The translations under genes and the position numbers were made by a program. 64,000 bases of DNA. It comes from an uncultured Clostridia bacterium (GTDB lineage Bacteria; Bacillota; Clostridia; Christensenellales; UBA3700). The first letter of the stretch is position 1. Every line of letters starts with the position of its first letter. Below are positions 1 to 19,503 of the stretch, piece after piece. The stretch spans positions 21,485 to 85,484 of the forward strand of contig CAMXSN010000002.1 in the NCBI GenBank assembly GCA_947246685.1. Reading direction: 5' to 3'. The notes beneath the pieces are model-generated. The model searched no databases. It worked only from the letters and a program-made list of their open reading frames with translations, and was not told where the DNA came from.

Positions 1-1
1 T

Positions 2-82
2 ACAACTAATCGTGTCGACGGAGAAAAAGGTGGAAACGGATATTACGGAAGTAAAGGCGCTGAAGGAAACGACGGCATTTAA
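2..82 (+). CDS. 3' end of a gene truncated by the window edge; collagen-like Gly-X-Y tail
   Basis: Frame is open from the window edge to TAA at 80-82. It translates ...VDGEKGGNGYYGSKGAEGNDGI* with six consecutive G-X-Y triplets. Same strand as the downstream surface-protein genes. Confidence 0.35.
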   Translation, partial: TTNRVDGEKGGNGYYGSKGAEGNDGI

Positions 83-114
83 TATAAAAATAAAAAACAT
101 ATTGAGGTGTTAAA

Positions 115-1920
115 ATGAAAAAGAAGATTTTACTAACGTTGATTATATGTCTGTCTGTAATTTTTGTTATGGCAGCATGTAATCCAAAGGCAGGAAATGA
201 CGGTCGTACTAAATACGACACACCATCTATGGAATTGTTCGACGCAGAAGTAACTGCGGATTCAATAGAGATTATTTGTGACAAATTTTACGATGAGTAT
301 AAAAACGGCGAGGTCTTGCAATTTAGTCTTCCCAACGGAGATTGGCAGGACAGCCCGCTTTTTGAGGGACTTCTTCCTAATACGTTATACGATATAAGAA
401 TCAGAATAAAGGAAGATAAAGACCATAAAGCGAGCAATTTTGACTATTATTCTGTGAGTACAGCTAAGAAAGAGGCAGCAGTATTGCCTGAACATATAGA
501 CTATACGCAAGAAAACAGAACCGTCACCGTTGAAAAAAATGACGCTTGGGAGTATTGTTTTACAGAAGATGATAGATATAGAAATGCTAATTCTTATACT
601 TATGGTAGCGAGGACGACGGCGAAAGAATCATTAAAGTAAGGACAAAAGGCGATGAAAGCATAAATGCTGGCGATCCGTATGAAATTAAAGTTTACATAA
701 GCGGTTATTATAATGGTTCCGGTACCGAAGAAGATCCATTTTTAATATATACGGTTGAACATTTCAACTCGAGAAAAACTGTGTCCAAAACTAATAACGT
801 TCATATCAAATTGATGAACGATCTTGATTTTACCAACGCTGTAATAAGGGACTGCAATAAATTAGGAGACAGTTTCGACGGCAACGGACATAAAATCAGC
901 AACGCGAAAATTACTAGGGCAACTACCGGAGAGTATATCGTTAAGAACTATGCGGGAATATTTACTCAAATCAAGGAGATCAAAAATCTTACTGCGGAAA
1001 ATATCGTAATAGAACTTGCAGCAGAAAAATGGGATGTAAATTATTCTGTAGGACTGATAGCAGGCGGCGCGCAAGTGGTAGATAATTGCCGTGCGAGCGG
1101 TAGAATAGTATTAAACGATGAATATTCAAAAAGAGGCGTATGCGGTATCGGCGGATTGGTTGGTGAAATGGGTTGCACAAAAGGAGACGTTATTGTAAAC
1201 AATTCATATGCCGACGTTAGTATCGCTTATGAATCTACGACCAATACTAATTTGATATTGAGAGTCGGGGGGTTGTTTGGAGCAGGCGTTGACGGTTACG
1301 TGCAAACTCTAAAGGTATCTCAGAGCGCAGCTAATATAGATGTCGATTTGAAAGGCTTTGTAACTTCGGACGATAGATATACGGGCGTAGGCGGTTTGAT
1401 AGGGGATACCAAAGAAGGTAGCATAGAAAATTGCTATGCTAGCGGAAATATTAAAACAAACGGAGCAGGAGGAAAGGTTGCCGTAGGAGGTTTGACTGCT
1501 GCTGTTTATTCTACTTATGAGAGTTATCGTTGCATCTTCCCCAATATTAAAAATTGCTATTCTACGGTAAATATGGATATTGACGGAACAAACCAAACGG
1601 TAGTCGCCGGTGGAGTCAATCCGATGATGCATAGCAAAACCGGTCCGAAAACTGTCGATAATTGTTTGTTTGCAGGCAATATTTCGATAACTAATTTATC
1701 AGATAGATCCGCTGCAGGCAGCGTATACGGAAAAGATTGCGAGAACATTACGGTTTCCAATTGCTATAATATCAATACTCTTGCCGATTACGTAGACGTA
1801 AGTATGTCTACAGCAGTTGATGAAGCAACTATCAAGAGTGTGGTATGGCAACGAGAAACGTTAAAACTTAGCGAAGAATACTGGGAGCTTGTCGAAGGGA
1901 AATATCCTGAGTTGAAATAG
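115..1920 (+). CDS. surface lipoprotein with GLUG-like repeats
   Basis: 601-aa ORF with GAGGTG just upstream of the ATG. Lipoprotein-type signal ending VMAAC (Cys22). Recurring GGL(I/V/F)G-type motifs (GLIAGG, GIGGLVGE, VGGLFGAG, GVGGLIGD, VGGLTAA) typical of GLUG-motif surface proteins. Confidence 0.8.
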   Translation: MKKKILLTLIICLSVIFVMAACNPKAGNDGRTKYDTPSMELFDAEVTADSIEIICDKFYDEYKNGEVLQFSLPNGDWQDSPLFEGLLPNTLYDIRIRIKEDKDHKASNFDYYSVSTAKKEAAVLPEHIDYTQENRTVTVEKNDAWEYCFTEDDRYRNANSYTYGSEDDGERIIKVRTKGDESINAGDPYEIKVYISGYYNGSGTEEDPFLIYTVEHFNSRKTVSKTNNVHIKLMNDLDFTNAVIRDCNKLGDSFDGNGHKISNAKITRATTGEYIVKNYAGIFTQIKEIKNLTAENIVIELAAEKWDVNYSVGLIAGGAQVVDNCRASGRIVLNDEYSKRGVCGIGGLVGEMGCTKGDVIVNNSYADVSIAYESTTNTNLILRVGGLFGAGVDGYVQTLKVSQSAANIDVDLKGFVTSDDRYTGVGGLIGDTKEGSIENCYASGNIKTNGAGGKVAVGGLTAAVYSTYESYRCIFPNIKNCYSTVNMDIDGTNQTVVAGGVNPMMHSKTGPKTVDNCLFAGNISITNLSDRSAAGSVYGKDCENITVSNCYNINTLADYVDVSMSTAVDEATIKSVVWQRETLKLSEEYWELVEGKYPELK

Positions 1921-1956
1921 GTTTTGCGGAATTTAGGATAATAGAGTATCAAAGTA

Positions 1957-4900
1957 ATGATGAAAGCAGCAAAAATAATTATTTTTATCTTTATTATCAT
2001 TAGCGTGATAGTCGTCGGCGATAATATAATTCTTGCAGATGACTATTGCGCCTATGCGCAAATGCAGAATGAAAATGACGCTTCTGCTCGTACGATAAAT
2101 AATTTTTCTGATTTGGCCGCCATAGCTTCTGATGTAAACGGAGGTAAATATGACGGATATTATGGCTTAACTATTAATCTTGCATGCGATTTGGATATTG
2201 GAGACGATTGTCGATCATTTGACAGCGGTTCCGGATGGATACCTATAGGTACGACAACGTATCCTTTCAAAGGTACGTTTAATGGAAACGGATATAGTAT
2301 CAGCGGTCTATATATAAATAGACCTAACAGCGAAAATGTTGGATTATTCGGTGTTGCAAATGCAAACGCTACAATAGAGAATTTGGAAGTCGATGGTACG
2401 ACTGTTGGCAACAATTATACAGGCGGATTGATAGGATATAGTCAGGCTAAGATTGATAATTGCGTTAGTTGCATATCGGTGTCTGCTCAAAATGATACTT
2501 TACATATCGGAGGAATAGCCGGATATAATTTAGGGAAAATTTCTAAGTCCAAAAATTACGGAAAAGTAAGCGTTGGTTTTTCAACTTTTGTAGGAGGAGT
2601 AACAGGTAGTAATTTAGGAACCATAGATCTGTGTTTCAACGAAGGCGAAATTATTTCATCAAATTCTGTTGTAGGGGGTATTGCGGGAAACAATGCAGGA
2701 AATATCGGAATTTGTATGAATAGCGGAAAAGTTGTAGGTAAGGCGAGTGTAGGCGGCATTGTAGGTAATAATCAAAACTTAATAAATAACGTATTCAGCA
2801 GATGCACAGTCGAATCCGTCAACGGAACTGCCGGCGGGATAGTAGGAAGTAACGAAGCAGTCGGCAATGTTACGTGTTGTGTTGCCGTATGCACAGTCAA
2901 CGGAATGGATGATATTGCGTCTGTTTGCGGTTATAATATGGGGGTAGTGGAAAATTCTTTTTTTGACGATTGTATTTCGACGGCTCCGATAGTTAACGGT
3001 TTAGCTGCAGAAAATTCAAAAGGCTTGACTACTAGATTATTAGTACACGAAGATTCATTGATAAATAAAGAGAAACTATTGTCTCTTAATGTAAACGTTG
3101 ATGGAATTTGGGTAAAACGAAAGAGCGTGGACGGGAAGTTTTTTTATCCCGAATTAAAATATTTTTATGAAAATGAAGTTGATATTTCCACTCGGTTTTC
3201 TGAAGGAATATGTTCATTGCCGAGCGCTGAGGACGTTGAATTAGAAAAGTCGGAATTTGATTATAATGGGGAATGTCATTATATTGTCGTAAAAGTCAAT
3301 GAAATTTGTTTAGAACTCGGGCAGGACTACAACGTAAGGTATTCGGATAATATTAATTCCGGTAAGCATAACGCGAATATAGAGTTTAGCGGCATTTATG
3401 CAGGAATTGTGGAAAAAGAATTCTGTATAAATAAGTCTTTACTTGAAGTTGAATGGGACGAGGATGCATTTTATTATGATGGTCACGAACATAGACCTAA
3501 GTTGAGAATAGTTAGCGGTTTAATCAATAATGACAATATAGAATTTGAATATAACGCTGTTAAATCCGTCAACGTAAACGAATATGAAATTACCGCGCAA
3601 CTATCTGATAATTCGCTTATAAATAGAAATTACGAATTGCCCATAACGATAGGGAAATATAGGATATTGCAAGCTCCGTTAACGATAGGTTGGACAGATG
3701 AAAGCTTTGTTTATAATGGGCAGGTGCAATTTCCTAAAGCGCATGTGTTAACTGGAAAAGTAGAAGACGAGAATATTTCCATCATATATGAATATTTCGA
3801 TAACATAAATGCAGGCGAACAAACAATAAAGGCTTGTCTTGCCCAAACAGATATAAATGCCAATTATACACTTGACGCAAATCCATATACTTATTTAATC
3901 GAACAGAAGCCATTAGATTTAATTTGGGATGACGATGCGCTGTATTATAACGGGGAGGCTCAATTTCCTAAAGTCAAAAGCGTAATCGGAACTGTAAACG
4001 ACGATATAGTTGAGCTTATATATTCCGATTGCTCAAATAATATAAATGCAGATACTGACCGCAAATATATTGTGTCGGTCAAACTTTCCGATATTGAAGT
4101 TAATAATAATTATATTTTGTCAGGGAATAAACACAGCTATGTAATTAACAAAACCAAATTGGTTGTCGACTGGTGGGATACGCCACTGATATATAACGGA
4201 AAGCCACAGTGTCCTAATTACTTTATCGAGAGCGGAATTATAGGTAAAGAAGAAATAATAGTTGAGTATTCAGATTATTCGGCAAATATAAATGCTTGCG
4301 AAGATGACGTATATCAAATTGAAATCGCATTGGCAGATAATTTAATTAATGCAAATTACTTTCTTTCGCAAACGGTCAGAAGTTATGGCATAAGAAAAGC
4401 TGATTTTGATCCTAATAAAGACGTCGAGTTTGATTCAAAGGTATTTGGATACGATGGAGTAGTTAAAAGTATCTTTATTGAAGGCGTACTCCCGTACGGC
4501 GTTTCTGTTGAATATGAAAATAATGGAAAGACAGATATAGGACAGTACACAGTTACGGCAATTTTCAGTATCGACGCTGATAATTATAATCCGTTGATCA
4601 CAAAAATTTTATCGGCTACGCTGTCTATAGCGCAAATGGCTTTTTACGATAGCAAAAGCGATATAACGGCAATAAAGAAAGGCGATGCTATATACGGTTT
4701 GACCATAGGCATAGATCGTTTGGAAAAAACAAGCTTTAATAAAACGGGAAAGAAATTGTTGAAAGCGTATAAGAGTTCTTTTTCAGAAGGAACTGTTGAG
4801 TATAGAATACCTGTTGATAAAGAGTTAATTCAGGGAGGTAATCTTAATGTTTTGTATAAAACAGTATCTGGGGAAATTATCGGAGCTGACTATGTAATAG

Positions 4901-5427
4901 ATAATAACTACATTGTTTTTACTGTTGAAAACGCCGTTGAATTTGCTGTTTTTACAGATTTGAATCTGACTTGGCTTTGGGTCAGTTTGGGGCTAGTCAG
5001 CGTTATCATTATCGTTGTTATTGCTGTAATTTTAATGCGCAGAAAAAAACGTCGACGTGTTAATAAAGTTTTGGAATCGACTAATCTTCAAGATGAAATA
5101 CATTCTCATAAGGTTAATACGGAAAATAGTGTAAACGATTTTCCAGAAACAGAGCATCCGAATAGTATACACAGTGATGGGGCATACAACACTTCTTTTT
5201 ATTTTGACGGTGTATTTTGCTTATCTTATGAATGGTTTATAAAAAGTCTAAGTTTTAAGACGGTTGCTAAACAGAGTCGTATTTGCGCTGGAGATAATGG
5301 CGCGATCTTATTAAAGGAATCGATTTCAAGAGATACTATTTATTGGCAGGGCAAGCGATATAGAGTTAATTCAAAACAATATGATGCATTAATCGAAAGA
5401 GCAAAGGAGGCTATGCGTGAAAGTTAA
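1957..5427 (+). CDS. large membrane-anchored surface protein: GLUG-like repeats + MBG (YDG/YNG-type) repeats + C-terminal TM helix and cytoplasmic tail
   Basis: 1156-aa ORF with an N-terminal hydrophobic signal. GLUG-like motifs are present (GGLIGY, GGIAGY, GGVTGS, GGIAGN, GGIVGN). There are at least five repeats of the form F/L-Y-Y/N-G-x-x-Q/H-x-P ... N-(A/N/R)-N-Y-x-L. A TM segment WLWVSLGLVSVIIIVVIAVILM is followed by RRKKRRR and a tail of about 130 aa. Confidence 0.85.
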   Translation: MMKAAKIIIFIFIIISVIVVGDNIILADDYCAYAQMQNENDASARTINNFSDLAAIASDVNGGKYDGYYGLTINLACDLDIGDDCRSFDSGSGWIPIGTTTYPFKGTFNGNGYSISGLYINRPNSENVGLFGVANANATIENLEVDGTTVGNNYTGGLIGYSQAKIDNCVSCISVSAQNDTLHIGGIAGYNLGKISKSKNYGKVSVGFSTFVGGVTGSNLGTIDLCFNEGEIISSNSVVGGIAGNNAGNIGICMNSGKVVGKASVGGIVGNNQNLINNVFSRCTVESVNGTAGGIVGSNEAVGNVTCCVAVCTVNGMDDIASVCGYNMGVVENSFFDDCISTAPIVNGLAAENSKGLTTRLLVHEDSLINKEKLLSLNVNVDGIWVKRKSVDGKFFYPELKYFYENEVDISTRFSEGICSLPSAEDVELEKSEFDYNGECHYIVVKVNEICLELGQDYNVRYSDNINSGKHNANIEFSGIYAGIVEKEFCINKSLLEVEWDEDAFYYDGHEHRPKLRIVSGLINNDNIEFEYNAVKSVNVNEYEITAQLSDNSLINRNYELPITIGKYRILQAPLTIGWTDESFVYNGQVQFPKAHVLTGKVEDENISIIYEYFDNINAGEQTIKACLAQTDINANYTLDANPYTYLIEQKPLDLIWDDDALYYNGEAQFPKVKSVIGTVNDDIVELIYSDCSNNINADTDRKYIVSVKLSDIEVNNNYILSGNKHSYVINKTKLVVDWWDTPLIYNGKPQCPNYFIESGIIGKEEIIVEYSDYSANINACEDDVYQIEIALADNLINANYFLSQTVRSYGIRKADFDPNKDVEFDSKVFGYDGVVKSIFIEGVLPYGVSVEYENNGKTDIGQYTVTAIFSIDADNYNPLITKILSATLSIAQMAFYDSKSDITAIKKGDAIYGLTIGIDRLEKTSFNKTGKKLLKAYKSSFSEGTVEYRIPVDKELIQGGNLNVLYKTVSGEIIGADYVIDNNYIVFTVENAVEFAVFTDLNLTWLWVSLGLVSVIIIVVIAVILMRRKKRRRVNKVLESTNLQDEIHSHKVNTENSVNDFPETEHPNSIHSDGAYNTSFYFDGVFCLSYEWFIKSLSFKTVAKQSRICAGDNGAILLKESISRDTIYWQGKRYRVNSKQYDALIERAKEAMRES

Positions 5428-8400
5428 AAACTTATTACCTATTATTGTATTGTTGCTGATATCAAGTTTAGTTTGTTTATTTTCCGCATGCAAAGAAGTG
5501 GAGGAGCAAGGAAATGGCAAAGACGTTGAAAATTTTACAAGTTATTGCGTAACATTCAATTTAGGAGACGATTCCTTTACCGTATATAGTAATAATAAAA
5601 CGGGAAAAGTCGATAAACCAGCCGACCCTCAACGAAGTGGTTTTACATTTGCAGGTTGGTATACAACAGTAGATTCTGGAAATATATTTAATTTTGACAG
5701 TATTATTGTAGAAGATACGAATATTTATGCAAGATGGGATAAAAATCCTAACAAAATCAGATTTGAAGGAAATGGGAGCATTTCCGGAACGATGCCGGAT
5801 ATGATTGTAGAGGGGAATACTCCGACAAAATTACCGTTAAATAATTTTTTTAGAGAGGGATATGATTTTATTGGTTGGTCAGATATTGCAAACGGTAGCG
5901 TTAAGAATAAAGATGGCGGATGGTTTTATATGGAAGAAGGGATAGTTACTCTCTTTGCATGTTGGCAACCTAAAAAATATAATGTCGTAATAGATAACGA
6001 AAATGGCGAAGACACGCAAAAAATCGTGGCAACATTCGGCGAATTTTTGCCTCTGTTAAAAATGCCAATAAAGATCGGATACGTTTTTTCGGGATATTAT
6101 TCACAAAAAGATGGAAACGGGGATAAATATATTGATTCATCAATGCAGGGATGTAAAAAGTATTTATTAGCGAACGAAGAAATAACTTTGTTTGCAAAGT
6201 GGATTGAAGCCAAAAACATTATCAATTTTGACGGTAACGGCAATACTGGAGGAAGCACGTTGTGTTTGAGCGCTAAGTCTCACGAGGAAGTTTATTTGCC
6301 GGAATGCGGATTTACCCGCATAGGTTACACATTTATAGGTTGGAACGAATTATCGGATCTAAGCGGCAAAACTTATAAGGTTGGAGACAAATTTGAGATG
6401 CCTGCAAGTAGCGAGCCCATAGTATTGTATGCGGAATGGGTGAATAATAATTATAAAATAGTTCTAGACGATAACTTTTCTGGCGAATATTACGAATTTG
6501 AAATTTCTTATGACGTTGAAATAGAATTGAGGGAAAATACTTATATCAGATACGGATATACTTTTGTGGCATGGAATGACAAAAGCGACGGCTCGGGCAA
6601 TTATTATCAAGACAGGCAAACTATAATAAATTTAACCGAAGAAGCAAATGGAATAATAAGGTTGTTCGCAATTTGGAAGCCAGTTACGGTGCTTGTGCTT
6701 TTTAATAAGTCGGGAGGCAAGGGCGGAACAAGCAGCGCTAATATCACATTTGGCACACAGTTTCCGTTGATTGCCGCGCCTACAAAGGAGGGGTATATTT
6801 TCGGAGGGTATTATGCACAAGAAAACGGAAATGGTAATGAGTATTTAGATTCCCAGCTAGTTCCTATAAAAGTTTCCGATTTAGGGGCAGACGGCATCGA
6901 AGTCTATGCGAATTGGATTCCCAAAGAAAATACGCTGATGCTGTATCCTAACGGCGGCGTTGGGGACATAATAAGTATTGAGACCAAGACTGATGAAGTT
7001 ATTAATTTATATGATTATAGTTTCTATAAAATAGGATATACGCTTATCGGTTGGAATACAAAGGACAATGGCAACGGAGATTTTTATTCTTATGATTCGA
7101 ATTATGTTACTATAGCAAGCAATAATATTATAAAGTTGTATGCCGTTTGGGTTGCAAAATCGGTGATAGTTAAATTTAACGGAAATGGAAGCACTTCGGG
7201 AAACAATGAAGATGAATCTGGATATTGCGATAATGAAATAACTTTGCCGAATTGCGGGTATACAAGAGTGGGATATAAGTTTATTGGATGGAGCAGAACG
7301 AAAAATGGAGACGACGCTCTTCTCCAGCCGAATGCATCATATAAAATCGAGGCGTTGGATAGCGGTCTTATTGAATTCTTTGCTATGTGGGACGTCCAAT
7401 ATTATACCGTTAATTATCTATTAAACGGCGGCGTAAATTCGGCTTATAATCCGGTTAAATATACCTATTTAAGCGGTGATATCGTATTGGATATTCCAAC
7501 CAAAAGAGGGTATGAATTTGTCGGTTGGTATGAGGATGAAGAATTTTTGTCTAAGGTCACCGCGATACCTTCCGGCAGCTTTGGAGACAAAACTTATGTA
7601 GCACAGTGGAATAAAATCACATACAAAATTTTTTATATACTCAATGGGGCAAATGTAGAAAACCCTAATATAATTAATGAGTACGATATAGAAACAGAAA
7701 CCTTTTACCTAAAAGATCCTAAGAAACCCAATTATAATTTTGAGGGATGGGCAGAAGGTAACGTTGTTGAAAAAGGTAGTACGGGAAATAAAACTTTTAC
7801 CGCGCAGTGGAGCGGAGTAAGTTATAGTATAACGTATGTTTTGGACGGCGGCGTTAACGGAGACGGGAATCCGGGAACGTATATGTCGGATAGCGATCAA
7901 ATCGTCCTAAAGAGTCCCACTAAATTAGGATATGTATTTACTGGTTGGACTTGCGTAGATATGGGCATTAATACGCCTACTATGCCAGTAAAAATAGAAA
8001 AAAATAGTAGTGGCGATAGGACTTTTGTTGCACATTGGGATGTTATAAAGTATAGCATCTCTTATGATTTGAACGGTGGGGAGAACTCGGATAAAAATCC
8101 GACGGACTACGATATCACTGATGAAATACTATTAAGTGATCCAACTAAAATTGGGTACAATTTCGATGGCTGGCGAGAAGGTGCATTAGTTGTACAAGGC
8201 AGCACGGGAAATTTGAAGTTTACGGCAGAATGGTCTCCAATAAATTACGAAATATCGATAATTTACGATAAGTCTTTGGAATTGCAGTCAAAAGTAATTA
8301 AATACAATATTGAGAGCAAAGACATTTTGATAAGCGTAGATCCATCTATTGATTGCGGTTACAGTATTCAAGTCGGAGAAGAAATTGAAAGTGTAGTAGT

Positions 8401-8776
8401 ATCGAATAAAAACGGATATATTCTATCCGGATGGTATGAAAATGATAATGAAGGGGATGTTATATCATCATATTTAATTACAACAGGTACTATTGGGGAT
8501 AAGACGATAACGGCGAAATGGGAAATTATAATGTATACGATTGAGTATGATGTTGAGGATGATGCCGTATTTGAAATAGAAAATCCCAATTATTACAATA
8601 TACAATCCGATACAATAGAATTACAACGTCCGACGAGAGAAGGATATATATTTGTGGATTGGGTTGATGAGAATATGGAAGCGGTAAAAATCATCCCGTC
8701 GGGAAGTATTGGAAATATTAAATTAAAGGCAATATGGATATTGGATGAATCTGCGTCCGGTTCGGAGCCGACATAA
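5417..8776 (+). CDS. surface lipoprotein made of about 14 Listeria-Bacteroides (InlB B-repeat / Flg_new) repeats
   Basis: 1119-aa ORF with a GTG start preceded by AAGGAGG. It overlaps the stop of the upstream gene. The signal ends LFSAC. The motif G-Y-x-F-x-G-W recurs (GFTFAGWYT, GYDFIGWSD, GYTFIGWNE, GYKFIGWSR, GYEFVGWYE, GYVFTGWTC, and others). Confidence 0.9.
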   Translation: MKVKNLLPIIVLLLISSLVCLFSACKEVEEQGNGKDVENFTSYCVTFNLGDDSFTVYSNNKTGKVDKPADPQRSGFTFAGWYTTVDSGNIFNFDSIIVEDTNIYARWDKNPNKIRFEGNGSISGTMPDMIVEGNTPTKLPLNNFFREGYDFIGWSDIANGSVKNKDGGWFYMEEGIVTLFACWQPKKYNVVIDNENGEDTQKIVATFGEFLPLLKMPIKIGYVFSGYYSQKDGNGDKYIDSSMQGCKKYLLANEEITLFAKWIEAKNIINFDGNGNTGGSTLCLSAKSHEEVYLPECGFTRIGYTFIGWNELSDLSGKTYKVGDKFEMPASSEPIVLYAEWVNNNYKIVLDDNFSGEYYEFEISYDVEIELRENTYIRYGYTFVAWNDKSDGSGNYYQDRQTIINLTEEANGIIRLFAIWKPVTVLVLFNKSGGKGGTSSANITFGTQFPLIAAPTKEGYIFGGYYAQENGNGNEYLDSQLVPIKVSDLGADGIEVYANWIPKENTLMLYPNGGVGDIISIETKTDEVINLYDYSFYKIGYTLIGWNTKDNGNGDFYSYDSNYVTIASNNIIKLYAVWVAKSVIVKFNGNGSTSGNNEDESGYCDNEITLPNCGYTRVGYKFIGWSRTKNGDDALLQPNASYKIEALDSGLIEFFAMWDVQYYTVNYLLNGGVNSAYNPVKYTYLSGDIVLDIPTKRGYEFVGWYEDEEFLSKVTAIPSGSFGDKTYVAQWNKITYKIFYILNGANVENPNIINEYDIETETFYLKDPKKPNYNFEGWAEGNVVEKGSTGNKTFTAQWSGVSYSITYVLDGGVNGDGNPGTYMSDSDQIVLKSPTKLGYVFTGWTCVDMGINTPTMPVKIEKNSSGDRTFVAHWDVIKYSISYDLNGGENSDKNPTDYDITDEILLSDPTKIGYNFDGWREGALVVQGSTGNLKFTAEWSPINYEISIIYDKSLELQSKVIKYNIESKDILISVDPSIDCGYSIQVGEEIESVVVSNKNGYILSGWYENDNEGDVISSYLITTGTIGDKTITAKWEIIMYTIEYDVEDDAVFEIENPNYYNIQSDTIELQRPTREGYIFVDWVDENMEAVKIIPSGSIGNIKLKAIWILDESASGSEPT

Positions 8777-8917
8777 CAATATAAGCCGAATTTGCGTGTT
8801 AATTCTGCCTAATGAAACAACTACCATGTTTCATTATCTTGGATATTACATAGAAGGCTTAAAATAATCAAAAACTCAATAAGTAATATTATGATATAAA
8901 CTCAGGAGATAATACAT

Positions 8918-11719
8918 ATGAAAATTAAAGTTTTTCTAGCCTCATCGATCACAGAATTTGAAAGTGATCGTATGAGTTTTGCCATTTATTTGAATAAACT
9001 CAACGCAATATTTGCCGAACAATATGGCGTTTCGATTACTCCTTTTATTTGTGAAACGGCCGATCATTCAGTTAATAAAAACGGCCGAAAACAAGACGAA
9101 TATAATCAAGAAATTGCTGATAGCGATATGGTTATCTTCTTACTGGGGAATAATTTGGGAGAATTCACAAAAGAGGAATTTTGCTTTTCTTGCAACAAGC
9201 TGAAAGAGAATAGCCGACCGAAAATTTATGTTTATTTCTGTAATAAAGGGAATTGTTCCGACGACATTGCTGATTTTAAGAAAGTTCTCGAAACCGAATA
9301 TCAACATTATTACGATACGTTTGAGTACATAGATACAGTCAAGCTTAGCACGTTATTTAATATTCGTCGGTTGGCTTTTCCTTCAATGAAAGTAGAAATT
9401 AAAGGCGACTATTTCTTTGTCGACGGAAAAATGATTTCGCAAGACATATTATCACCGACTAATATACAGGCTTTCAATAATAATCAAGAAATTAATGAAC
9501 TCAAAATAAGATATGATAAATCCGACGAAAATAATAAAAAAATTATAAAAAGAAGAATAAATGAGATACAAAATGATATTTTAAGTGTTTTTCTGGACTT
9601 AAGCAATTATACATTTAACGGGGAATATAACTGTAGAGTGACTGAAGCTGTTAGGTTATTGGAAAACGGTGATAAAGCCAAAGCTATAGATGTATTAGAT
9701 AACGCGCATAACCGAGATAGGCGAGCAGCGAGAAAAAGAGTGCGCCAAATGGAAACACTTGATGATATTAGCAGAATAAAATTCGAAATAAATATTCGCA
9801 AAACGGATAAAGAATATTCGAAAATCGATGATCTATATCGGGAAGCCGTTGAATATGCATTAGAGGATCGTATCGGATTAATGGTATTATACGATTATTC
9901 GTCATGGCTGGCTTCTATTCATCGGGTAGATGAAGCAGTAAAAATTGCAGTACAATTAAATGATATTTTGATTAATTACACACAGGATGAATTGAAAGAT
10001 GACAACATATCGAAGATAGATTTAGCAAATATAAAGATACTTCTAGGCGATTTGTATAGGAGAATATTGCAATTTAATAAAGCATATTCTGCTTACCGTG
10101 AAGCATTTTCTTTTTGGGAGGATTGCATTGATTCGTTTATGGGAGTTCAAGTATGGACATTGGCGGAGTATATTGAGGAAGTTGCTTGTTTCATTCAAAA
10201 TGTTCCTGATTCGGTTTCTGATATTGTTGATCCATTAAATTACGCTAAAGGCGTACGTGTTGGGCAATTAGCCACAGATATAAGAAGACTTAAAAGAAAA
10301 TTGCAAGATAAAAATCAAATAGATTTTAGCACCCTAGAATCTAATCCTATTTACAAAAGAGGAAGTCAATCGATTGCATTATTTGAAGAAAGCTTATCTG
10401 AAAAGTTCAAATCAGATGTAATTTCCGATAGCATTACTTTTGTACTGGATAATCCTATTTGCGAATCTTATATTCTTTTGTTGTTTGCCTTATGTATAAA
10501 GCAATCTGTTCTAGATAAAACGAAAGACTATTCAGGTTATGCTAGAGGATTATCAATGACAATATTAAATATTGCAACAATACAAAATATAATGCGCCGT
10601 TACGAAGATGCCGAAGATGGGGCGAATTTAGCTATAAGTTATTTAACTAAATTTCCCGAGATTAATACCGATATGGATATAAATCATGATTTTCTTCAAG
10701 CATACGCGGTTTTATATACTAGCTATATTAATCGTGATAACATGATTAAAGCGCAGAAATGTAGGAATAATATGTTAAAATACGGTGAAAAAATTTATAA
10801 CCAATATCCAAGAGAATTTGCCTTAGACTATACAGATATGCTATTTCATTTGGGTATTGATAGTCTTCACGCTTCAAACTTTTTTGCATCGGTCGAAATA
10901 TTTGAAAAAATTATTGGCATATATGAAAGTATAGACGCGGACCGGGAAATAGATAGGACACAGTATTTAATTCCATTTTTAATATCTAATCTCAGATGGA
11001 TAGAGGCGTATTCACAATATTCTCATATTACAGAAAAATTTCAGTCTGATTTTAATATTATAAATGATCACTTTATAAAGGCTATAAGTTTATTTGACGC
11101 TATAAATGCAAGCGATGACTTTGATGAGCTAAGTAAATCTAATTGCGTTCTTGAAATAAATTGGTGTAATTTATTATATTTGCCTCCTATAGGGGATATG
11201 AATGCATGTGTAGATATAATAGAACAAGCTTTTGAAATATGTATGAGTTTAAGCTTGGAGGATAATTTTTGCACATATTATCAATGGACAAAAACTTTAG
11301 AAGTAGTAACAATGTTTATTAATTGCTGTTGTGATATTGAACTTGAAAAATCGAAATGGCTTAATAATTTATACTCGATATTAGTGTTGCCGATTGATTT
11401 TATTATAAATAATGCGAAACTGGATCCCTTGCGTTTAATTCCTTCCCATTTCAGACATTTAACTGATTATGCTTTTCTAAATTCTTCAGATGTTGATTTT
11501 TTGACAAACTATAAAACCGTATTGTTTTTGTTTTATGAATCAATAATTGATTGTGAGGATGATGTTGGAGAAGTAAAACAACAGTTGATTGAAAAAATTA
11601 GCAATTCATATAGCGAGATTATAAAACAAGCAAATTCTCTTGAGAATAGGATATGTATACTTTCTATATTAGAAAAAGAAAGGGACAAAATTAAAAAGAA
11701 TTCTAATAGTACCATTTGA
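8918..11719 (+). CDS. large cytoplasmic protein: DUF4062/TIR-like N-terminal domain + coiled coil + TPR-like helical repeats; no NTPase motif
   Basis: 933-aa ORF with an AGGAG RBS. The N-terminus reads KVFLASSITEFESDR ... ADSDMVIFLLGNNLGEFTKEEF ... PKIYVYF, an alternating beta/alpha pattern with the acidic motifs I associate with DUF4062/TIR-like folds. The remaining 800 aa or so are helix-rich and repeat-like. I saw no GxxxxGK[ST] anywhere in the protein. Confidence 0.75.
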   Translation: MKIKVFLASSITEFESDRMSFAIYLNKLNAIFAEQYGVSITPFICETADHSVNKNGRKQDEYNQEIADSDMVIFLLGNNLGEFTKEEFCFSCNKLKENSRPKIYVYFCNKGNCSDDIADFKKVLETEYQHYYDTFEYIDTVKLSTLFNIRRLAFPSMKVEIKGDYFFVDGKMISQDILSPTNIQAFNNNQEINELKIRYDKSDENNKKIIKRRINEIQNDILSVFLDLSNYTFNGEYNCRVTEAVRLLENGDKAKAIDVLDNAHNRDRRAARKRVRQMETLDDISRIKFEINIRKTDKEYSKIDDLYREAVEYALEDRIGLMVLYDYSSWLASIHRVDEAVKIAVQLNDILINYTQDELKDDNISKIDLANIKILLGDLYRRILQFNKAYSAYREAFSFWEDCIDSFMGVQVWTLAEYIEEVACFIQNVPDSVSDIVDPLNYAKGVRVGQLATDIRRLKRKLQDKNQIDFSTLESNPIYKRGSQSIALFEESLSEKFKSDVISDSITFVLDNPICESYILLLFALCIKQSVLDKTKDYSGYARGLSMTILNIATIQNIMRRYEDAEDGANLAISYLTKFPEINTDMDINHDFLQAYAVLYTSYINRDNMIKAQKCRNNMLKYGEKIYNQYPREFALDYTDMLFHLGIDSLHASNFFASVEIFEKIIGIYESIDADREIDRTQYLIPFLISNLRWIEAYSQYSHITEKFQSDFNIINDHFIKAISLFDAINASDDFDELSKSNCVLEINWCNLLYLPPIGDMNACVDIIEQAFEICMSLSLEDNFCTYYQWTKTLEVVTMFINCCCDIELEKSKWLNNLYSILVLPIDFIINNAKLDPLRLIPSHFRHLTDYAFLNSSDVDFLTNYKTVLFLFYESIIDCEDDVGEVKQQLIEKISNSYSEIIKQANSLENRICILSILEKERDKIKKNSNSTI

Positions 11720-11898
11720 CCTAAAGGTTGTACGAAAGTTCCACTAAAATTCCAATGGCTTTCTATATAGAACCTAATAATTGAATAGTTGCGTTCTAAA
11801 TCTGAACTTTTTATGATCAGCTCAGCAGTGCGAAAGCGCAGATTTTGTTTTCAAGATTTTGCAAAACACTGTAATTTGAGCGCAAAGTTTTGATATGT

Positions 11899-11934
11899 GC
11901 GAGCGACGACAATTGCGTCGCCGCACTATTTTTT
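11899..11934 (+). terminator. putative rho-independent terminator downstream of the 933-aa gene
   Basis: GCGAGCGACG-acaattg-CGTCGCCGC forms a 9-bp GC-rich stem with one bulged A, followed by ACTATTTTTT. Confidence 0.45.
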
Positions 11935-12420
11935 GTGCTCGTTCTGCGAATTATACTTACCATTAAGCTCTATTACGATACTTTTGCATGTTGGGCTATC
12001 GTCGCGTTCGACGTATATTTCAAATTTATGATAAATTCTGAATTTTTTTCCGCAACGATTTCCCATATGTTTCGTTTGTCCGTGCTAACTTTGGCAATGT
12101 TTTATTCAATAATTTGATTGAGGAAATATTTGTTTTTTTATGACCATTCAGATTAATCTTTGATAAAAATTTAAACAAACTTTTTCCCATGGGTTCGTTA
12201 AATTTTTAATGGCGGATGCAGAGGCTTTAAAGCCACGTGCCATTAAAGACAGACGGTTTTCAAGAATAAAGTTTAATGGATTTAATGAAAGACTTTATTA
12301 GAGATTATTATGAAATATTACTACAATAATTAAAGACTATAAAAAGCGCTAGACTCTAGTTTAATAAAAAAAGAATGTAAGAAATCCCCAAGATAATCAT
12401 TAAAAATCATAGTCATAATA

Positions 12421-12449
12421 TTGATATTCAATGTTTGTTATGATATAAT
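12421..12449 (+). promoter_or_regulatory. sigma-A type promoter with extended -10 for the helicase-nuclease gene
   Basis: TTGATA, a 17-nt spacer, then TATAAT, with TG at the extended -10 position (TGATATAAT). The -10 hexamer ends 19 nt upstream of the ATG at 12469. Confidence 0.55.
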
Positions 12450-12468
12450 TAACTAAATTATTTGGGTA

Positions 12469-15400
12469 ATGATTATGCAGAAGATTATAGAGAATTTTGT
12501 TAATCAAAAAAGCAATGGCTTAATGTTACTAGATTTGCCAACAGGTTTTGGTAAAACGACTAGCGTAATAAAGTTTATAGATAAATTCATAAACAGTAAT
12601 ACGCAATCGGTTAAGCGAATTTATTTTGTAACAAATCTAAAGAAGAATCTTCCAGAAAAACGATTAAAAAAATCGTTGGGAGATAATTATGATAAATATT
12701 GTTTGTATCTAAAGCCATATTGGGAGTCGGTAACTGAAAAATGGAAGTTAACGCAAATTACGAATCCTGAAGTTTTGAATGCGGAAGAATATAAGAATCT
12801 TAACTTGGATATTGAAACGCTTTATAAATTTAGAGAAGATAATGAAAAACTTAGGAAAGCTAAAGATTTCAATCAAGAATATGTGAAGAATAAACGATTG
12901 ATTCAGTCTTATGAGCAAAAGATTGAAAGGGATACCGAAGTTAAATTTAGACAATTCATTAAAAAGACATTCTTCTATAATCAAACAGTGTATGAGAAAG
13001 ATAAGTTTTTAAAGAATAACCAATGGATTGCCGAGCTTTATCCTGCATGCAAATTAAAAGAAGAGAATATTAAAGTAGTATTGTCAAGTACGAAGAAATT
13101 TTTTAGTCCAATGGATACATTTTCTAGAATGCCGTTTTACATATACAATAACGAAGCATTAACGGAGAATAGTATTACATTTATTGATGAGTTTGATACG
13201 ACGAAAGAAACGTTATTAGATCAAATCATTGATGACGGCTTAAAATTTGATATCGACATTTTTGCGCTATTTCTAAATATCTATTATTCTTTAACAAATC
13301 TTTCATTTCCTGTCACACTAATGAGACTTAGTGATTATAGAAAAGGAAAGATTGAAAAAGAAGAATGGGTGGATATAAAAGAGTTGATAGAAGAACTGAA
13401 AAAGAAATTTCAGCAAGTTTATGAAGATTACCAGTTGCAATTTTTAGTAAAAAGTAAGGGCTTTGAAGAAAAGAAGGCATTTATTTTTGATGATGGCAAA
13501 TCTTTGAATATATTTAGCGATAAATCCAAAAAGGTGTTGAAGGCTACATACGACAAAGATGAAAATATTAACTCATTACTTGCGGTTGCAAAAAGTTATA
13601 AAGGTCAAGAAAAAGAGAGACTTGACAATATTTTGCTCGATGTGAAATTCGCTATAAATAGTTTTATAAATAAATCGGCCTACATATCGAAAAATTACAC
13701 AGATTATAAAAATCAATCTTTAAAGGGATATAAAATTAAATATTCATTTGAGGAATCTGCATTGACCATATTGTCAGCATTTAATGTTGCAGATGAATAT
13801 AGACAATATCTCTTAGATCGCATTATTGATAGAAACGCGAATATGAAACTAGATTTGCACGTAGAACCAGAGTTGGAGTTTATGAATAAAGGGTTCGAAT
13901 ATACTGAACTTGAGGATGATCATGAACACGATTTGCAAACAAAATGTCATGCATTTAAATTTGATACGACACCAGAGGCAATAATTGCTAAACTATGTGT
14001 AAAATCTAGAGCAGTTGGAATTTCAGCGACTGCATCGATAGAGACGGTAATTGGCAATTATGATATTGAATATTTCAAAAAAGTTTTACAAGACGACTTC
14101 TATTCAATTTCAGATAGCGATTATGCTAGGTTAGAGCAAGAGTTTATGGATGAGCAGAAAACATATGAAGAGAATAATATTACTATTCATACGGCTCCTA
14201 TAGATGGCGATAAAGTCTTTTCCGATAAAGAGAATTGCATTCAAGTTATTACGTCGATTTTTAATGAGAAGAATAGAGAATATTATTTAAATTATCTTGA
14301 AAATGATACAGAGCATTATCATTCTTATATTATTTGTAAACTTCTAAAATTGTATACTCATGTTGCGGCAAGTAGAGACATATATTCATTTCTGGCATTC
14401 TTAAATTCGTTTCCCAAAACTCAAGATAAGGCAGACAGACATCAGTTTTTAAATAAGGATTTTTTAGAGAGGGCAATAAGCGATCTTATTAAGCAAAATG
14501 GTTATGAGAATGCGCCTATAATCCATATTGTGAGGAGCGATAACTTTGAGGAAGAATTTGCGAAGATAAATGAAGAATTGGCCGAAGGTAAAAAGGTATT
14601 TGTATTAAGCACATATAGGACTATGGGCAATGGACAGAATATCCAATATAAGATTCCAGATATTGAGAGCATAAAATCAAACGTCATTATCAACAACAAA
14701 GATAGATTGGAAAAAGATTTCGATGCGATATACCTTTTAACTCCAACTAATTTGGTGCAAATGTTATCCTATGATTTGGAGAACAGAGTAAATAATTTGT
14801 GCAAATATTTATTTCAACAGGAATACTTGTATAAGAAGAATTATATATCATTTGATCAAAGAAAAATAAATATTGAATCTGGTTTTAGAAAAACGTTTTA
14901 TGGAGATAGGACAACGTCTTCATATAGAAGGAATGAAGACATATTATTACATACTGCTCAGTTAACAATTCAAGCTGTAGGTAGAATATGTAGATGTCAA
15001 AATAAGAACAAAAACATTTATATTTTTTACGACCAAGAAATTCTTAATCGGTTAAATCTTATTAAAGACGATTTAACCAATGGCAAGAAGATTTTTAATA
15101 AAGAGTTTAGGGTATTGTTGGAACAACCTGTACATGATGAGCGTATAGTATTCGATCATTATACGCTTAGGAATAAGAAAGCTTATGGTTTTCTAACAAA
15201 AATGTCAAAGGAGGTTAGGAAATCTAAAGAGAACGTTAGTGAATGGCAGGAATTGCGGAATTTTGTATTAAAACATCCAACAGCTAATAACATTCCGGAT
15301 AAATATGCATTTTTGTATTTTAAGTTTGATACGCCTGTCTATGGGTATGCATATAGATTTAATAATAATTATGAGTTTGTGAATTTCACGGTCAACAATA

Positions 15401-15915
15401 CATATGAAAAGACTCAAGTGTCAGCAGAGGGTAGTGAACTAATAAGGCTTATGAGTATTCCGGAGTTAAGGGAATATTTTGCAAGAAATGGATACGCCAC
15501 TAATTTTGAGCGCGGAATCTATGTGATGTCGGAATCTTTGTATAAGCAAATTTATAAAGGTGCGCTCGGCGAGGCTGTAGGAAGATATATAATTTCAAAG
15601 GCATGTGGTTGCGATTTGGAGGAGTTGGACAATTATCAGCAGTATGAGGCTTTTGATTTCAAAATTAATAATATTTATTTTGATTTTAAGCACTGGGATT
15701 ATTTTATTAAAGATAATGATAGTTATAGTAAATTTATTGAGTGGAAACTTAAAACAGTCCAAGGGGCAAAAGTAGTTGTTGCCAATATTTTTCAACGTGG
15801 CAATCATAAAATACGAGAATCGGTTGATGGTAAGATAATTCAAATACCATACTTAATAAATGATGACAATGAAATAGATTATAAATATCTAGATATTTTG
15901 CTAGACTTAATATAA
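12469..15915 (+). CDS. SF2 (DExD/H, SNF2-flavoured) helicase fused to a C-terminal PD-(D/E)xK-like nuclease module
   Basis: 1148-aa ORF. Helicase motifs: I LDLPTGFGKTT (nt 12544-12561), II FIDEFD (about 13186-13197), III-like GISATAS, V-like LSTYRTMGNGQNIQ, and VI QAVGRICR (14971-14994). The C-terminus reads GALGEAVG ... YEAFDFKINNIYFDFKHW (15646-15696). Confidence 0.85.
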   Translation: MIMQKIIENFVNQKSNGLMLLDLPTGFGKTTSVIKFIDKFINSNTQSVKRIYFVTNLKKNLPEKRLKKSLGDNYDKYCLYLKPYWESVTEKWKLTQITNPEVLNAEEYKNLNLDIETLYKFREDNEKLRKAKDFNQEYVKNKRLIQSYEQKIERDTEVKFRQFIKKTFFYNQTVYEKDKFLKNNQWIAELYPACKLKEENIKVVLSSTKKFFSPMDTFSRMPFYIYNNEALTENSITFIDEFDTTKETLLDQIIDDGLKFDIDIFALFLNIYYSLTNLSFPVTLMRLSDYRKGKIEKEEWVDIKELIEELKKKFQQVYEDYQLQFLVKSKGFEEKKAFIFDDGKSLNIFSDKSKKVLKATYDKDENINSLLAVAKSYKGQEKERLDNILLDVKFAINSFINKSAYISKNYTDYKNQSLKGYKIKYSFEESALTILSAFNVADEYRQYLLDRIIDRNANMKLDLHVEPELEFMNKGFEYTELEDDHEHDLQTKCHAFKFDTTPEAIIAKLCVKSRAVGISATASIETVIGNYDIEYFKKVLQDDFYSISDSDYARLEQEFMDEQKTYEENNITIHTAPIDGDKVFSDKENCIQVITSIFNEKNREYYLNYLENDTEHYHSYIICKLLKLYTHVAASRDIYSFLAFLNSFPKTQDKADRHQFLNKDFLERAISDLIKQNGYENAPIIHIVRSDNFEEEFAKINEELAEGKKVFVLSTYRTMGNGQNIQYKIPDIESIKSNVIINNKDRLEKDFDAIYLLTPTNLVQMLSYDLENRVNNLCKYLFQQEYLYKKNYISFDQRKINIESGFRKTFYGDRTTSSYRRNEDILLHTAQLTIQAVGRICRCQNKNKNIYIFYDQEILNRLNLIKDDLTNGKKIFNKEFRVLLEQPVHDERIVFDHYTLRNKKAYGFLTKMSKEVRKSKENVSEWQELRNFVLKHPTANNIPDKYAFLYFKFDTPVYGYAYRFNNNYEFVNFTVNNTYEKTQVSAEGSELIRLMSIPELREYFARNGYATNFERGIYVMSESLYKQIYKGALGEAVGRYIISKACGCDLEELDNYQQYEAFDFKINNIYFDFKHWDYFIKDNDSYSKFIEWKLKTVQGAKVVVANIFQRGNHKIRESVDGKIIQIPYLINDDNEIDYKYLDILLDLI

Positions 15916-16043
15916 TATTATTAGCAACTGAAGTTAAATTTGTAAATGATTAAGGAAAATGACAGTCTATGTTTCTTTCTAGCCAAAGTACATCGATATC
16001 CCATTTTAATGAAAAAAAGATTAATTAGAGGCAATAATATCAA

Positions 16044-17255
16044 TTATTCACTAGGTGAATTATCAATCACTTGAAAATTCTTAATAAAAGTACTTATTAT
16101 TTCATCGTATTGTTTAAAAAATTCATCTATTTCTTTAAGATCTTTAGGTTTAATAATAGAAAGCATAGATAAGCCTTCTATAGATTGTAATTTAGTCAAA
16201 ATATTAGCAAGTTGATTATTTGTTCGGAATAGCATATTGTAATAAAATAAATGCTTTAACAATAGTGGCTTGCAATCTTTAGTGAATTCTAATATGTGTT
16301 TAGCTATCAAAGATGTATGTTTTTTAATGATAGAAATATAATTGGTTAGATTTTCCATTGCACATGTGAAGTGTGTGTTTAAAGTTGACAATGCTGATGA
16401 CGTTAAACTTGATAAAAATAGAAACTCATTTCGTTTAAGTAGCTCATCGCACAGGTCTAAAGTTCTATGAGTAATTCTATTAGCTATGATAATATTTAAT
16501 TCTGAAAAAGACTTAGATTCGTTAATGATGAACTGTAAAACAGACTTAGCTTGCTCTGTATTATCTTGGCAAAGGGCTTCTAAAAATAACATATCTATGG
16601 TCTCAAATTCGTTTGAGTAGGTTTTGGAAATATAATTATCGATTTTCGCGATTTGATCTTCGTTTAGATTTGGTATCGCAGTAAGAGTCGCATTTTCAAA
16701 AACGCAAATATAATCAGTATTCTTAATCTTAAATCGAACCTTACTTTCATAATAATAATATACGGGGTCTAGGGAATAGAGCCATATTGCATAAACAATT
16801 AAATAGATAAAACATAAAGATAGATATATTGCTGTAGCTATCATATTTTTATAGTCTTGCAAGATGAAATGATATATCCATAGAGAAGTATTTATAAATA
16901 TAAATAGCCAAGAATCTTTGCGATAATCAGCAATACGTGGGATACTTTTATGTATTTCTCTTAGGGTAATTCCAAGTACTTTTGTGTTCATTTCTTTTAA
17001 CAATGGAAGCAAGATTGAAATATATATGCCTAAAAGGGCGGTGGGTAACGCAACGAGCGCAATTGCCCAATTCTCGTTGCCTTTTATTGCATTCTCAAAA
17101 TTTGGCATCGCATATTCCGCAATTGCCAAGTATCCAATGAGGATAATCAAGCAAAATAGGAGCTTGAAAAATGGACCACTGAAAAACACCTCTGCCCGGC
17201 TAGTTGTTTTTTGCAATTTAATTAGTTTTCTCTTTATGCGTTTATAAGATTTCAT
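16044..17255 (-). CDS. hypothetical 4-TM membrane protein with a helical soluble domain of about 240 aa
   Basis: 403-aa ORF, very AT-rich. Four hydrophobic segments lie in the first 160 aa (FFKLLFCLIILIGYLAIA, WAIALVALPTALLGIYISILLPLL, WLFIFINTSLWIYHFIL, MIATAIYLSLCFIYLIVYAIWLY). I recognised no family. Confidence 0.7.
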   Translation of the reverse strand: MKSYKRIKRKLIKLQKTTSRAEVFFSGPFFKLLFCLIILIGYLAIAEYAMPNFENAIKGNENWAIALVALPTALLGIYISILLPLLKEMNTKVLGITLREIHKSIPRIADYRKDSWLFIFINTSLWIYHFILQDYKNMIATAIYLSLCFIYLIVYAIWLYSLDPVYYYYESKVRFKIKNTDYICVFENATLTAIPNLNEDQIAKIDNYISKTYSNEFETIDMLFLEALCQDNTEQAKSVLQFIINESKSFSELNIIIANRITHRTLDLCDELLKRNEFLFLSSLTSSALSTLNTHFTCAMENLTNYISIIKKHTSLIAKHILEFTKDCKPLLLKHLFYYNMLFRTNNQLANILTKLQSIEGLSMLSIIKPKDLKEIDEFFKQYDEIISTFIKNFQVIDNSPSE

Positions 17256-18672: not shown

Positions 18673-19461
18673 TCAAGCGCCTTCCATGAGCATTTTGTCG
18701 GCGAGAAGCGCGATAAACTCGCCGTTGGTCGGCTTGTCGTTGGCAGTATATATCTTTATGCCGAAAATATTATTGATATTTTCAATCTTTCCGCGATTCC
18801 AAGCTACTTCTATCGCGTGGCGAATAGCGCGTTCAACCTTGGACGGGGACGTCTCGAATTTATTTGCAATAGACGGATACAGTTTTTTGGTGATGCTATT
18901 GATTATTTCCGGACTGTCGATAGCCATTTTGATAGCTTCTCTCAAAAATTGATATCCTTTTATATGCGCGGGGATTCCGACTGATATGAAAATATTGGCG
19001 AGTTTTTCATCGAGGTTACGCTGCGATCTTTTGACTGCCTGCTGAATGAGTCTGTCGTCGAGCACAGTGGATTTTTTAGTAACTGTGACGCCGCCGAATT
19101 CTTTGACTCTGTCTTTGAGCATTTGCATATTTACCGGCTTGACTAGGTAATAGCTTGCGCCGAGCGTAATAGCTTTATTGATAAAGTTTTCGCCGATAAG
19201 CTGAGACGTCACGATAAAATTGGGTTTTGAAGTCATATTGTTGTAATCGAGGTTGGATAGCACTCCAAAACCGTCGACTTCCGGCATTACCAAATCAAGT
19301 ATAACCACGTCGGGGTTAAAAGATTCTATTTTATGAATAGCTTCCAAGCCGTCGCTTGCGCTGCCTATTACTTCTACTTCTTCGTCGTCAAAATAACTTT
19401 CTCTAACGTTGTTTACAAATTCTTCGCTGTCGTCTACAATCAGCAATTTGATTTTTTTCAT
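18673..19461 (-). CDS. spo0A: sporulation master response regulator Spo0A
   Basis: N-terminal receiver domain (KLLIVDDS ... DVVILDLVMPEVDG). The C-terminal Spo0A-specific domain carries HIKGYQFLREAI and SKVERAIRHAIEVAWNRG. I chose the start at MKKIKLL after GGAGGAA. Confidence 0.92.
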   Translation of the reverse strand: MKKIKLLIVDDSEEFVNNVRESYFDDEEVEVIGSASDGLEAIHKIESFNPDVVILDLVMPEVDGFGVLSNLDYNNMTSKPNFIVTSQLIGENFINKAITLGASYYLVKPVNMQMLKDRVKEFGGVTVTKKSTVLDDRLIQQAVKRSQRNLDEKLANIFISVGIPAHIKGYQFLREAIKMAIDSPEIINSITKKLYPSIANKFETSPSKVERAIRHAIEVAWNRGKIENINNIFGIKIYTANDKPTNGEFIALLADKMLMEGA

Positions 19462-19503
19462 ATCATTCCTCCGCAAATTCTTTTAAGTATCTACATTTTA
19501 TTA

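Follow-up and report, generated by a model that had tools for sequence, protein, structure and literature searches.

In 2026, DUF4062 was shown to be a TIR-like NAD+-hydrolyzing (NADase) domain, used by bacteria in immunity and also by the human vault protein TEP1 (bioRxiv 10.64898/2026.05.01.722283). Two single-gene abortive-infection systems that combine a DUF4062 domain with an AUX region and that contain no NTPase have been described. In the anti-phage system Swarozyc (KpSwz), AUX is a small helix-turn-helix (HTH)/winged-helix domain that binds the phage portal, which activates the system; the TIR-like domains rest on a small, intertwined beta-sheet and two helical stalks, and E97 is needed for both defense and NADase activity (Osinski et al., bioRxiv 10.64898/2026.05.01.722283). 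The same study identified E1008 as the catalytic Glu of TEP1 and found that KpSwz and TEP1, the two characterized DUF4062 enzymes, yield ADP-ribose and nicotinamide only (bioRxiv 10.64898/2026.05.01.722283). Evangelion (Eva01), encoded by the S. aureus plasmid pMW2, has a DUF4062 core and a diversified AUX; AUX of Eva01 is short and linked to phage replication, the C-terminal region is required, and E87 was picked for mutagenesis as the putative catalytic Glu (Ibarra-Chavez et al., bioRxiv 10.64898/2026.06.25.731849). In both KpSwz and Eva01, the AUX region senses phage (bioRxiv 10.64898/2026.05.01.722283; 10.64898/2026.06.25.731849). Here, we analyze a gene for a 933-residue protein with a DUF4062 head, a helical stalk and a large TPR-like body. 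The gene lies in a stretch of 64,000 nucleotides, hereafter the window, from an uncultured Clostridia bacterium of the Christensenellales (NCBI GenBank assembly GCA_947246685.1, contig CAMXSN010000002.1, positions 21,485 to 85,484 of the forward strand).

The 933-residue protein is an NTPase-less effector-sensor fusion, and we are highly confident of its architecture, i.e., a DUF4062 head followed by a TPR body with no NTPase. It shares the layout of Swarozyc and Evangelion in that a single polypeptide carries a DUF4062 core and a C-terminal AUX region, lacks an NTPase and has no gene as an obligate partner. A first-pass annotation, made from the letters of the window alone, had arrived at a similar reading, and the peptides that it quoted (KVFLASSITEFESDR, ETADH, EIADSDMVIFLLGNNLGEFTKEEF, PKIYVYF and NNNQEINELKIRYDKSDENNKKIIKRRINEIQ) are all present in the translation of the open reading frame (ORF). 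In a search of 5.8 billion proteins, five full-length homologues with 48-100% identity were recovered, including a near-identical copy with three substitutions (P0001) and four proteins with 70, 55, 53 and 48% identity. Because these homologues align end to end with the 933-residue protein, the gene is, as judged by sequence conservation, real and under selection. The family is rare and has a patchy distribution: A full-length alignment scan of 185,579 species genomes returned one distant locus with 28% identity, and no relatives were found in a scan of viral contigs.

Residues 1-155 have a DUF4062/TIR/nucleoside-deoxyribosyltransferase-like fold, and this assignment is supported by sequence, by conservation and by structure prediction. 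First, DUF4062 (PF13271) is the sole significant Pfam family on the protein. When residues 1-220 were scanned alone, PF13271 scored 25.5 bits (E 1.5e-5) and passed the gathering cut-off of 24.7; moreover, it is matched by 20 of 26 head homologues and by all five full-length homologues. Second, hhalign aligned the head profile with Eva01 at a probability of 92.6% (E 4.6e-7, 176 columns). In this alignment, F6 is placed on F11 of Eva01 and E87 on E87 of Eva01, a register that was repeated with a second, narrower profile, and Q59 corresponds to the Q of the Q/W/E motif of Eva01. Third, F6, S9, S10, R18, E87 and P101 are invariant in the 26 head homologues, and E46, Q59, N63 and E86 are nearly so. 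Across the full-length homologues, mean identity is 68% in the head and 46-56% in segments of the body, so that the head is the more conserved part. On the strength of these comparisons, DUF4062 membership of the head is judged to be beyond chance. When the head profile and the full-length profile were compared with PDB sequences, matches were at chance level only, the KpSwz and TEP1-TIR structures apparently being outside that copy of the PDB or too distant. Fourth, in the AlphaFold2 (AF2) model of residues 1-220, which was built from an alignment of 26 sequences (predicted local distance difference test [pLDDT] 91, predicted template modeling [pTM] score 0.88), five parallel strands (2-9, 39-44, 71-76, 102-108 and 132-135) alternate with helices in a flavodoxin-like manner. 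The Foldseek matches of the head in the PDB are flavodoxin-like folds, including the TIR domain of the plant protein RRS1 (4c6s, TMt 0.62), the CMP N-glycosidase BcmB (4jen, 0.70) and RCL, and the best matches among viral models are enriched in nucleoside 2-deoxyribosyltransferases (NDTs) and also include one TIR domain. Fold evidence by itself cannot tell TIR, NDT and generic flavodoxin-like folds apart; sequence evidence does. The first-pass annotation had proposed a TIR/DUF4062/deoxyribosyltransferase-like head and had named profile and structure searches among the ways to check it. Both types of search bear out the proposal, with Pfam and hhalign finding significant similarity to DUF4062, and AF2 and Foldseek finding TIR/NDT-like flavodoxin folds.

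The remainder of the protein is predicted to consist of a stalk region and a TPR-like solenoid. The full-length AF2 model (pLDDT 83, pTM 0.67) has ~30 helices and zero beta-strands beyond residue 173. A segment that the first-pass annotation had described as a coiled coil leading into helical repeats (NNNQEINELKIRYDKSDENNKKIIKRRINEIQ, residues 187-218) lies within the long helical stalk of the model (residues 184-233), and residues 2-205 are conserved as a single block across the head subfamily. When the full-length model was compared with the PDB by Foldseek, all 43 significant matches (E<=1e-3) were TPR or other alpha-solenoid repeat proteins, and the leading matches included Ctr9, the IFT-A protein TTC21B, LGN/Pins, Tom70/71, SPY, the TPR region of OGT and subunits of the APC/C. 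The TPR signal in the sequence of the 933-residue protein is weak (TPR_12, E 0.04); all five full-length homologues match TPR_12 (best E 1.1e-6) and TPR_2, and a profile of the body also matches TPR_12 proteins. Thus, by these predictions, the body is a TPR-like solenoid, as had been proposed.

The absence of an NTPase is central to this architecture and has to be weighed against two explanations that would supply one. The protein could be an ordinary STAND protein whose P-loop NTPase, lodged between head and repeats, is cryptic and degenerate, and DUF4062 is indeed found beside NACHT or AAA_16 elsewhere, e.g., in the bacterial protein P0042 (DUF4062 with AAA_16/nSTAND and TPR) and in human TEP1, NWD1 and NPHP3. 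However, a pattern search found no Walker A motif ([GA]xxxxGK[ST]) in the 933-residue protein or its full-length homologues; no NTPase family matched the protein in Pfam at E<=1; no NTPase was returned by the PDB sequence profile search or was among the best 50 Foldseek matches of the full-length model in the PDB; and the model has no strand past residue 173. A cryptic P-loop NTPase is, therefore, ruled out as far as prediction allows, which agrees with the reading of the first-pass annotation, and we regard an ordinary STAND protein as exceedingly improbable. The same annotation suggested that NTP-dependent switching might be provided by the neighboring helicase, making this a two-gene system. 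The neighboring gene (12469-15915, + strand) encodes an 1148-residue homologue of DdmD (PADLOC 5e-35; PDB DdmD 9ix4 6.8e-53 over residues 183-1132), i.e., a large superfamily 2 (SF2) helicase-nuclease. The two genes are direct neighbors with a shared orientation and lie in a segment of low GC content, and no DdmE or prokaryotic Argonaute-like gene was found near the DdmD-like gene. However, they are separated by a gap of 750 bp, and the DdmD-like gene has its own predicted, near-consensus promoter at 12421-12449 (TTGATA-17-TATAAT with a TG extension; 11 of 12 consensus positions). Moreover, the window is 99.6% identical to the metagenomic locus L004 over positions 1-12264 and then diverges completely, so that a copy of the 933-residue protein that differs by 3 residues is followed by a Hachiman system in L004; the 53%-identical homologue P0004 has VWA and protein-kinase neighbors; and none of 14 genomic loci with DdmD-like genes (38-95% identity; gut Clostridia metagenome-assembled genomes [MAGs]) encodes a relative of the 933-residue protein or shares a conserved neighbor. 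Finally, the DdmD-like cassette (12445-15959) is 93% identical to that of the related MAG locus L093, whereas identity in the flanking core genes is 73-75%. This difference implies that the cassette moved on its own and indicates recent horizontal transfer of the single DdmD-like gene. Based on the promoter, the breakpoint in L004, the neighbors of P0004, the 14 loci and L093, the DdmD-like gene is an independently mobile defense cassette and not a partner. Nor does the 933-residue protein qualify as a component or partner of DdmDE, having no PADLOC match and no conserved co-occurrence with DdmD. Altogether, the 933-residue protein is independent of the DdmD-like helicase, and the two-gene explanation is largely refuted by the comparative data; we consider it very improbable. 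The "solo" DdmD homologue may represent a DdmE-independent clade of DdmD.

The NTPase-less fusion is not an isolated case. Among 34 relatives, 33 have neither an NTPase domain in precomputed Pfam lists nor a canonical P-loop motif, and isolated P-loop pattern matches in four of the relatives (P0006, P0011, P0026 and P0030) fall in TPR regions. The only relative with an NTPase, P0032, is a Roc-COR-LRR (ROCO) GTPase in which the DUF4062-like head is at the C-terminus (residues 661-803). Because 33 of the 34 lack an NTPase, this layout is the norm in the head subfamily and no anomaly. Thus, the first-pass annotation was correct that the NTPase is missing, but its premise that this is unusual is weakened, both by these counts and by the NTPase-less DUF4062 systems with AUX regions that were published in 2026. 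Besides the full-length homologues, ~30 proteins have residues 1 to ~400 in common with the 933-residue protein and then continue into canonical TPR_10/TPR_12 arrays. Two relatives carry tandem DUF4062-like heads in one polypeptide (two copies in P0007 and at least two in P0019), which would fit cooperation between heads.

The body is rare. When 1.84 billion representative proteins were searched with a profile built from residues 396-933, only 13 matched at E<=1e-3. Beyond family members and fragments, these matches form two groups. The first consists of ordinary TPR_12 proteins, which match at roughly residues 540-680 and some of which have DUF4062+AAA_16, NACHT or SIR2 heads. The second is P0037, a protein of 978 residues in which the body is homologous to that of the 933-residue protein to its C-terminal end (profile E 2e-13; BLASTP E 8e-11 over residues 388-925) and in which a canonical TIR_2 domain (residues 167-257, E 2.4e-11) takes the place of DUF4062. 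The presence of DUF4062 and TIR_2 on homologous bodies indicates, at the level of sequence, an effector swap. Such a pairing of one kind of sensor body with two different NADase-type heads would be expected of an effector-sensor fusion.

The genomic context of the 933-residue protein and its close relatives supports a role in immunity. The first ~17 kb of the window, which include its gene, have a GC content of 29-39% versus 44-49% for most of the window. This segment lies upstream of a region with Spo0A (18673-19476; 88% identical to Clostridiales and Christensenellaceae MAGs), and the same site has different contents in related loci: a DdmD-like gene in the window and in L006; Hachiman, an integrase and a Gabija-like system in L004; and a type I restriction enzyme upstream of the DdmD-like cassette together with an extra ORF of 418 codons in L093. 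In L004, the genes past the breakpoint (from L004 position 13347) encode HamA (8.5e-17) and HamB (2e-86) of Hachiman, the integrase and an OLD-TOPRIM/UvrD pair, which is Gabija-like. The P0004 gene is followed by genes for VWA, protein kinase, HTH, RyR and TIR_2-like proteins. Thus, the neighbors of the gene and its homologues differ in each context examined, and the locus marks a defense hotspot in which DdmD-like, Hachiman, Gabija-like and type I restriction cassettes differ between near-identical strains.

With moderate confidence, we propose by analogy with the described systems that the 933-residue protein is a single-gene abortive-infection system that combines a DUF4062 (NIR) NADase with a TPR sensor. 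We infer its NADase chemistry, dimerization through the stalk, the trigger and the abortive outcome. In this model, the head, with E87 as the predicted catalytic residue, would be the effector and would most likely hydrolyze NAD+, and the beta-hairpin and helical stalk would probably pair two heads in an auto-inhibited dimer. The solenoid of ~700 residues would be the sensor. Upon infection, a phage-derived and probably multimeric protein would bind the solenoid, thereby repositioning or clustering the heads and switching on NAD+ hydrolysis, and infection would be aborted. Ligand-driven clustering would, in that way, stand in for the oligomerization that is normally provided by a STAND NTPase; the DdmD-like helicase-nuclease is a separate defense cassette in the same hotspot.

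Several observations weigh against this proposal, and two further explanations draw on them. On the full-length protein, PF13271 scores 22.6 bits (E 1.2e-4), slightly under the cut-off of 24.7, and scans with PADLOC and NCBIfam matched no family, i.e., no defense-database model recognizes the protein. No homology of its AUX body to AUX of Eva01 was found, nor to the HTH/winged-helix AUX of KpSwz, which was judged by description only; because the body is unrelated to the former and unlike the latter, the mechanism of activation is proposed by analogy only. At the level of the fold, the head gives similar Foldseek scores with TIR, with NDT and with generic flavodoxin-like structures, and BcmB (TM-score 0.70), RCL and viral NDTs score like TIR. 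Accordingly, the head could be a nucleotide or nucleoside N-glycosidase of the NDT, RCL or BcmB type, or could make an ADP-ribose-derived messenger, and not simply deplete NAD+. That a published similarity network places DUF4062 between the TIR and NDT clans (bioRxiv 10.64898/2026.05.01.722283) and that the head has an E-F motif, and not the E-Y motif of Evangelion, point in the same direction. However, the head resembles DUF4062, and no NDT family, in sequence, both KpSwz and TEP1 release only ADP-ribose and nicotinamide, and there is no conserved adjoining effector gene that could read a signal; we therefore consider a different chemistry unlikely. The head could also be inactive, or bind nucleotides for a housekeeping purpose, in a TPR scaffold or regulator with no role in immunity. 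The human DUF4062 proteins NWD1, NWD2 and NPHP3 have no NADase activity in vitro (bioRxiv 10.64898/2026.05.01.722283), and the DUF4062 fold is, therefore, no guarantee of this activity. Moreover, the distant subfamily members P0006, P0008 and P0012 sit among housekeeping genes with no defense genes nearby. P0006 and P0012 (loci L090 and L113) are both within ~8 kb of a cluster with YicC, guanylate kinase, RpoZ and PriA, which may mean that part of the subfamily keeps a conserved place in the chromosome and cautions against a setting purely in defense islands. On the other hand, neither the predicted catalytic Glu nor the other motif residues vary within the subfamily, the 933-residue protein and its closest relatives are encoded beside swappable defense cassettes, its gene lies in a low-GC segment, the distribution is very patchy, and the body is common to a TIR_2 protein. 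A non-immune function is, hence, also of low probability, and an abortive-infection NADase remains the explanation that we favor.

We further suggest, as a possibility about which we are doubtful, that the 933-residue protein belongs to an NTPase-free class of TPR pattern-recognition receptors. In such a class, one large and rare solenoid "chassis" would accept interchangeable NAD-consuming heads, namely DUF4062 in the 933-residue protein and TIR_2 in P0037; clustering on an assembly of a phage protein would replace the nucleotide-driven oligomerization of STAND proteins; and the class of trigger and the geometry would be unlike those of the portal-binding Swarozyc and of Evangelion.

Table 1. 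Positions in the window of the gene for the 933-residue protein and of its predicted parts
Feature	Residues	Position	Strand	Basis
Shine-Dalgarno sequence AGGAGA		8905..8910	+	7 nt 5' of the ATG, read from the sequence
Coding sequence of the DUF4062-stalk-TPR protein	933 residues	8918..11719	+	ATG start; stop codon included
DUF4062 (PF13271) TIR-like head	1-155	8918..9382	+	Pfam, AF2, Foldseek, hhalign, conservation
GAA codon for the predicted catalytic Glu, motif FTKEEF, start of helix C	E87	9176..9178	+	Invariant in 26 head homologues; aligned to E87 of Eva01
Small three-stranded beta element (159-173) and long helical stalk (184-233)	156-235	9383..9622	+	AF2 secondary structure, head and full-length models
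All-alpha TPR-like solenoid of ~30 helices, putative sensor (AUX)	236-933	9623..11716	+	AF2 full-length model, Foldseek, TPR matches of homologues
Rare C-terminal body module	388-925	10079..11692	+	Common to P0037, BLASTP E 8e-11

A number of observations were made on the regions around the gene. Immediately 3' of it, a non-coding stretch of 545 bp (11720-12264) is conserved with L004. It contains only short, broken minus-strand ORFs (31-54 codons, head to tail) and may be the remnant of a decayed gene; there is a weak terminator-like hairpin at 12000-12013, and inspection of the intergenic ORFs of 11720-12468 gave nothing convincing. On the 5' side, three large genes (115-8776; products of 601, 1156 and 1119 residues) encode surface protein-like products, one with a GLUG motif and one with 11 Listeria-Bacteroides repeats, and the C-terminal part of the protein of 1156 residues weakly matches gp30.3, a phage protein, at a level under the cut-off (E 4e-7). 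Beyond the DdmD-like gene, an ORF of 403 codons on the minus strand (16044-17255) has a weak, sub-threshold match to peptidase M50 and no match in the PDB or PADLOC; in L093, the homologous sequence is broken into two ORFs. In the two unrelated loci L001 (15527-15814) and L003 (8093-8374), small RyR-domain (PF02026) proteins of ~95 residues are encoded a few genes 3' of DUF4062-TPR homologues, and the one in L003 adjoins a protein of 1041 residues with a weak match to the Card1 endonuclease.

The 933-residue protein extends the DUF4062 NADase-type class to a gut bacterium of the Christensenellales and to a much larger TPR-solenoid sensor. Together with P0037, it forms a natural head-swap pair with which one could study the activation of two different NADase folds by a sensor where no STAND NTPase is present. 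Its practical value is modest because the class of architecture has already been described and the trigger is only inferred.

Swarozyc resembles the 933-residue protein in having an N-terminal DUF4062 domain with a conserved Glu, a beta element followed by a stalk, a C-terminal sensing region, a single gene, no NTPase and a setting in defense islands. The likeness of the stalks is judged from the text description of KpSwz. The two differ in AUX, which in KpSwz, judged from the description in the paper, is a small HTH/winged-helix domain, as opposed to a TPR solenoid of ~700 residues here; the Swarozyc supplements make no mention of TPR. Evangelion has a homologous head, is encoded by a single gene and has a C-terminal region that is not an NTPase. 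However, Eva01 has only 324 residues with a short AUX and no similarity to the 933-residue protein outside the head, it has an E-Y in place of an E-F motif, and it is plasmid-borne in staphylococci, whereas the gene described here is chromosomal in an uncultured gut bacterium of the Christensenellales. STAND-type DUF4062 proteins, such as bacterial P0042 (DUF4062-AAA_16/nSTAND-TPR) and eukaryotic TEP1, NWD1 and NPHP3, share the DUF4062 head and often the TPR (TPR_10, TPR_12 and the NPHP3 type); unlike in the 933-residue protein, their head is separated from the repeats by a NACHT or AAA_16 NTPase. P0037, a metagenomic TIR_2-TPR protein of 978 residues from a 3.4-kb contig, is alike in the body from residue 388 on and differs in its TIR_2 head. 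Altogether, the class of NTPase-less proteins with DUF4062 and a variable AUX region was already published in 2026, and the 933-residue protein adds to it an unusually large and rare TPR body.

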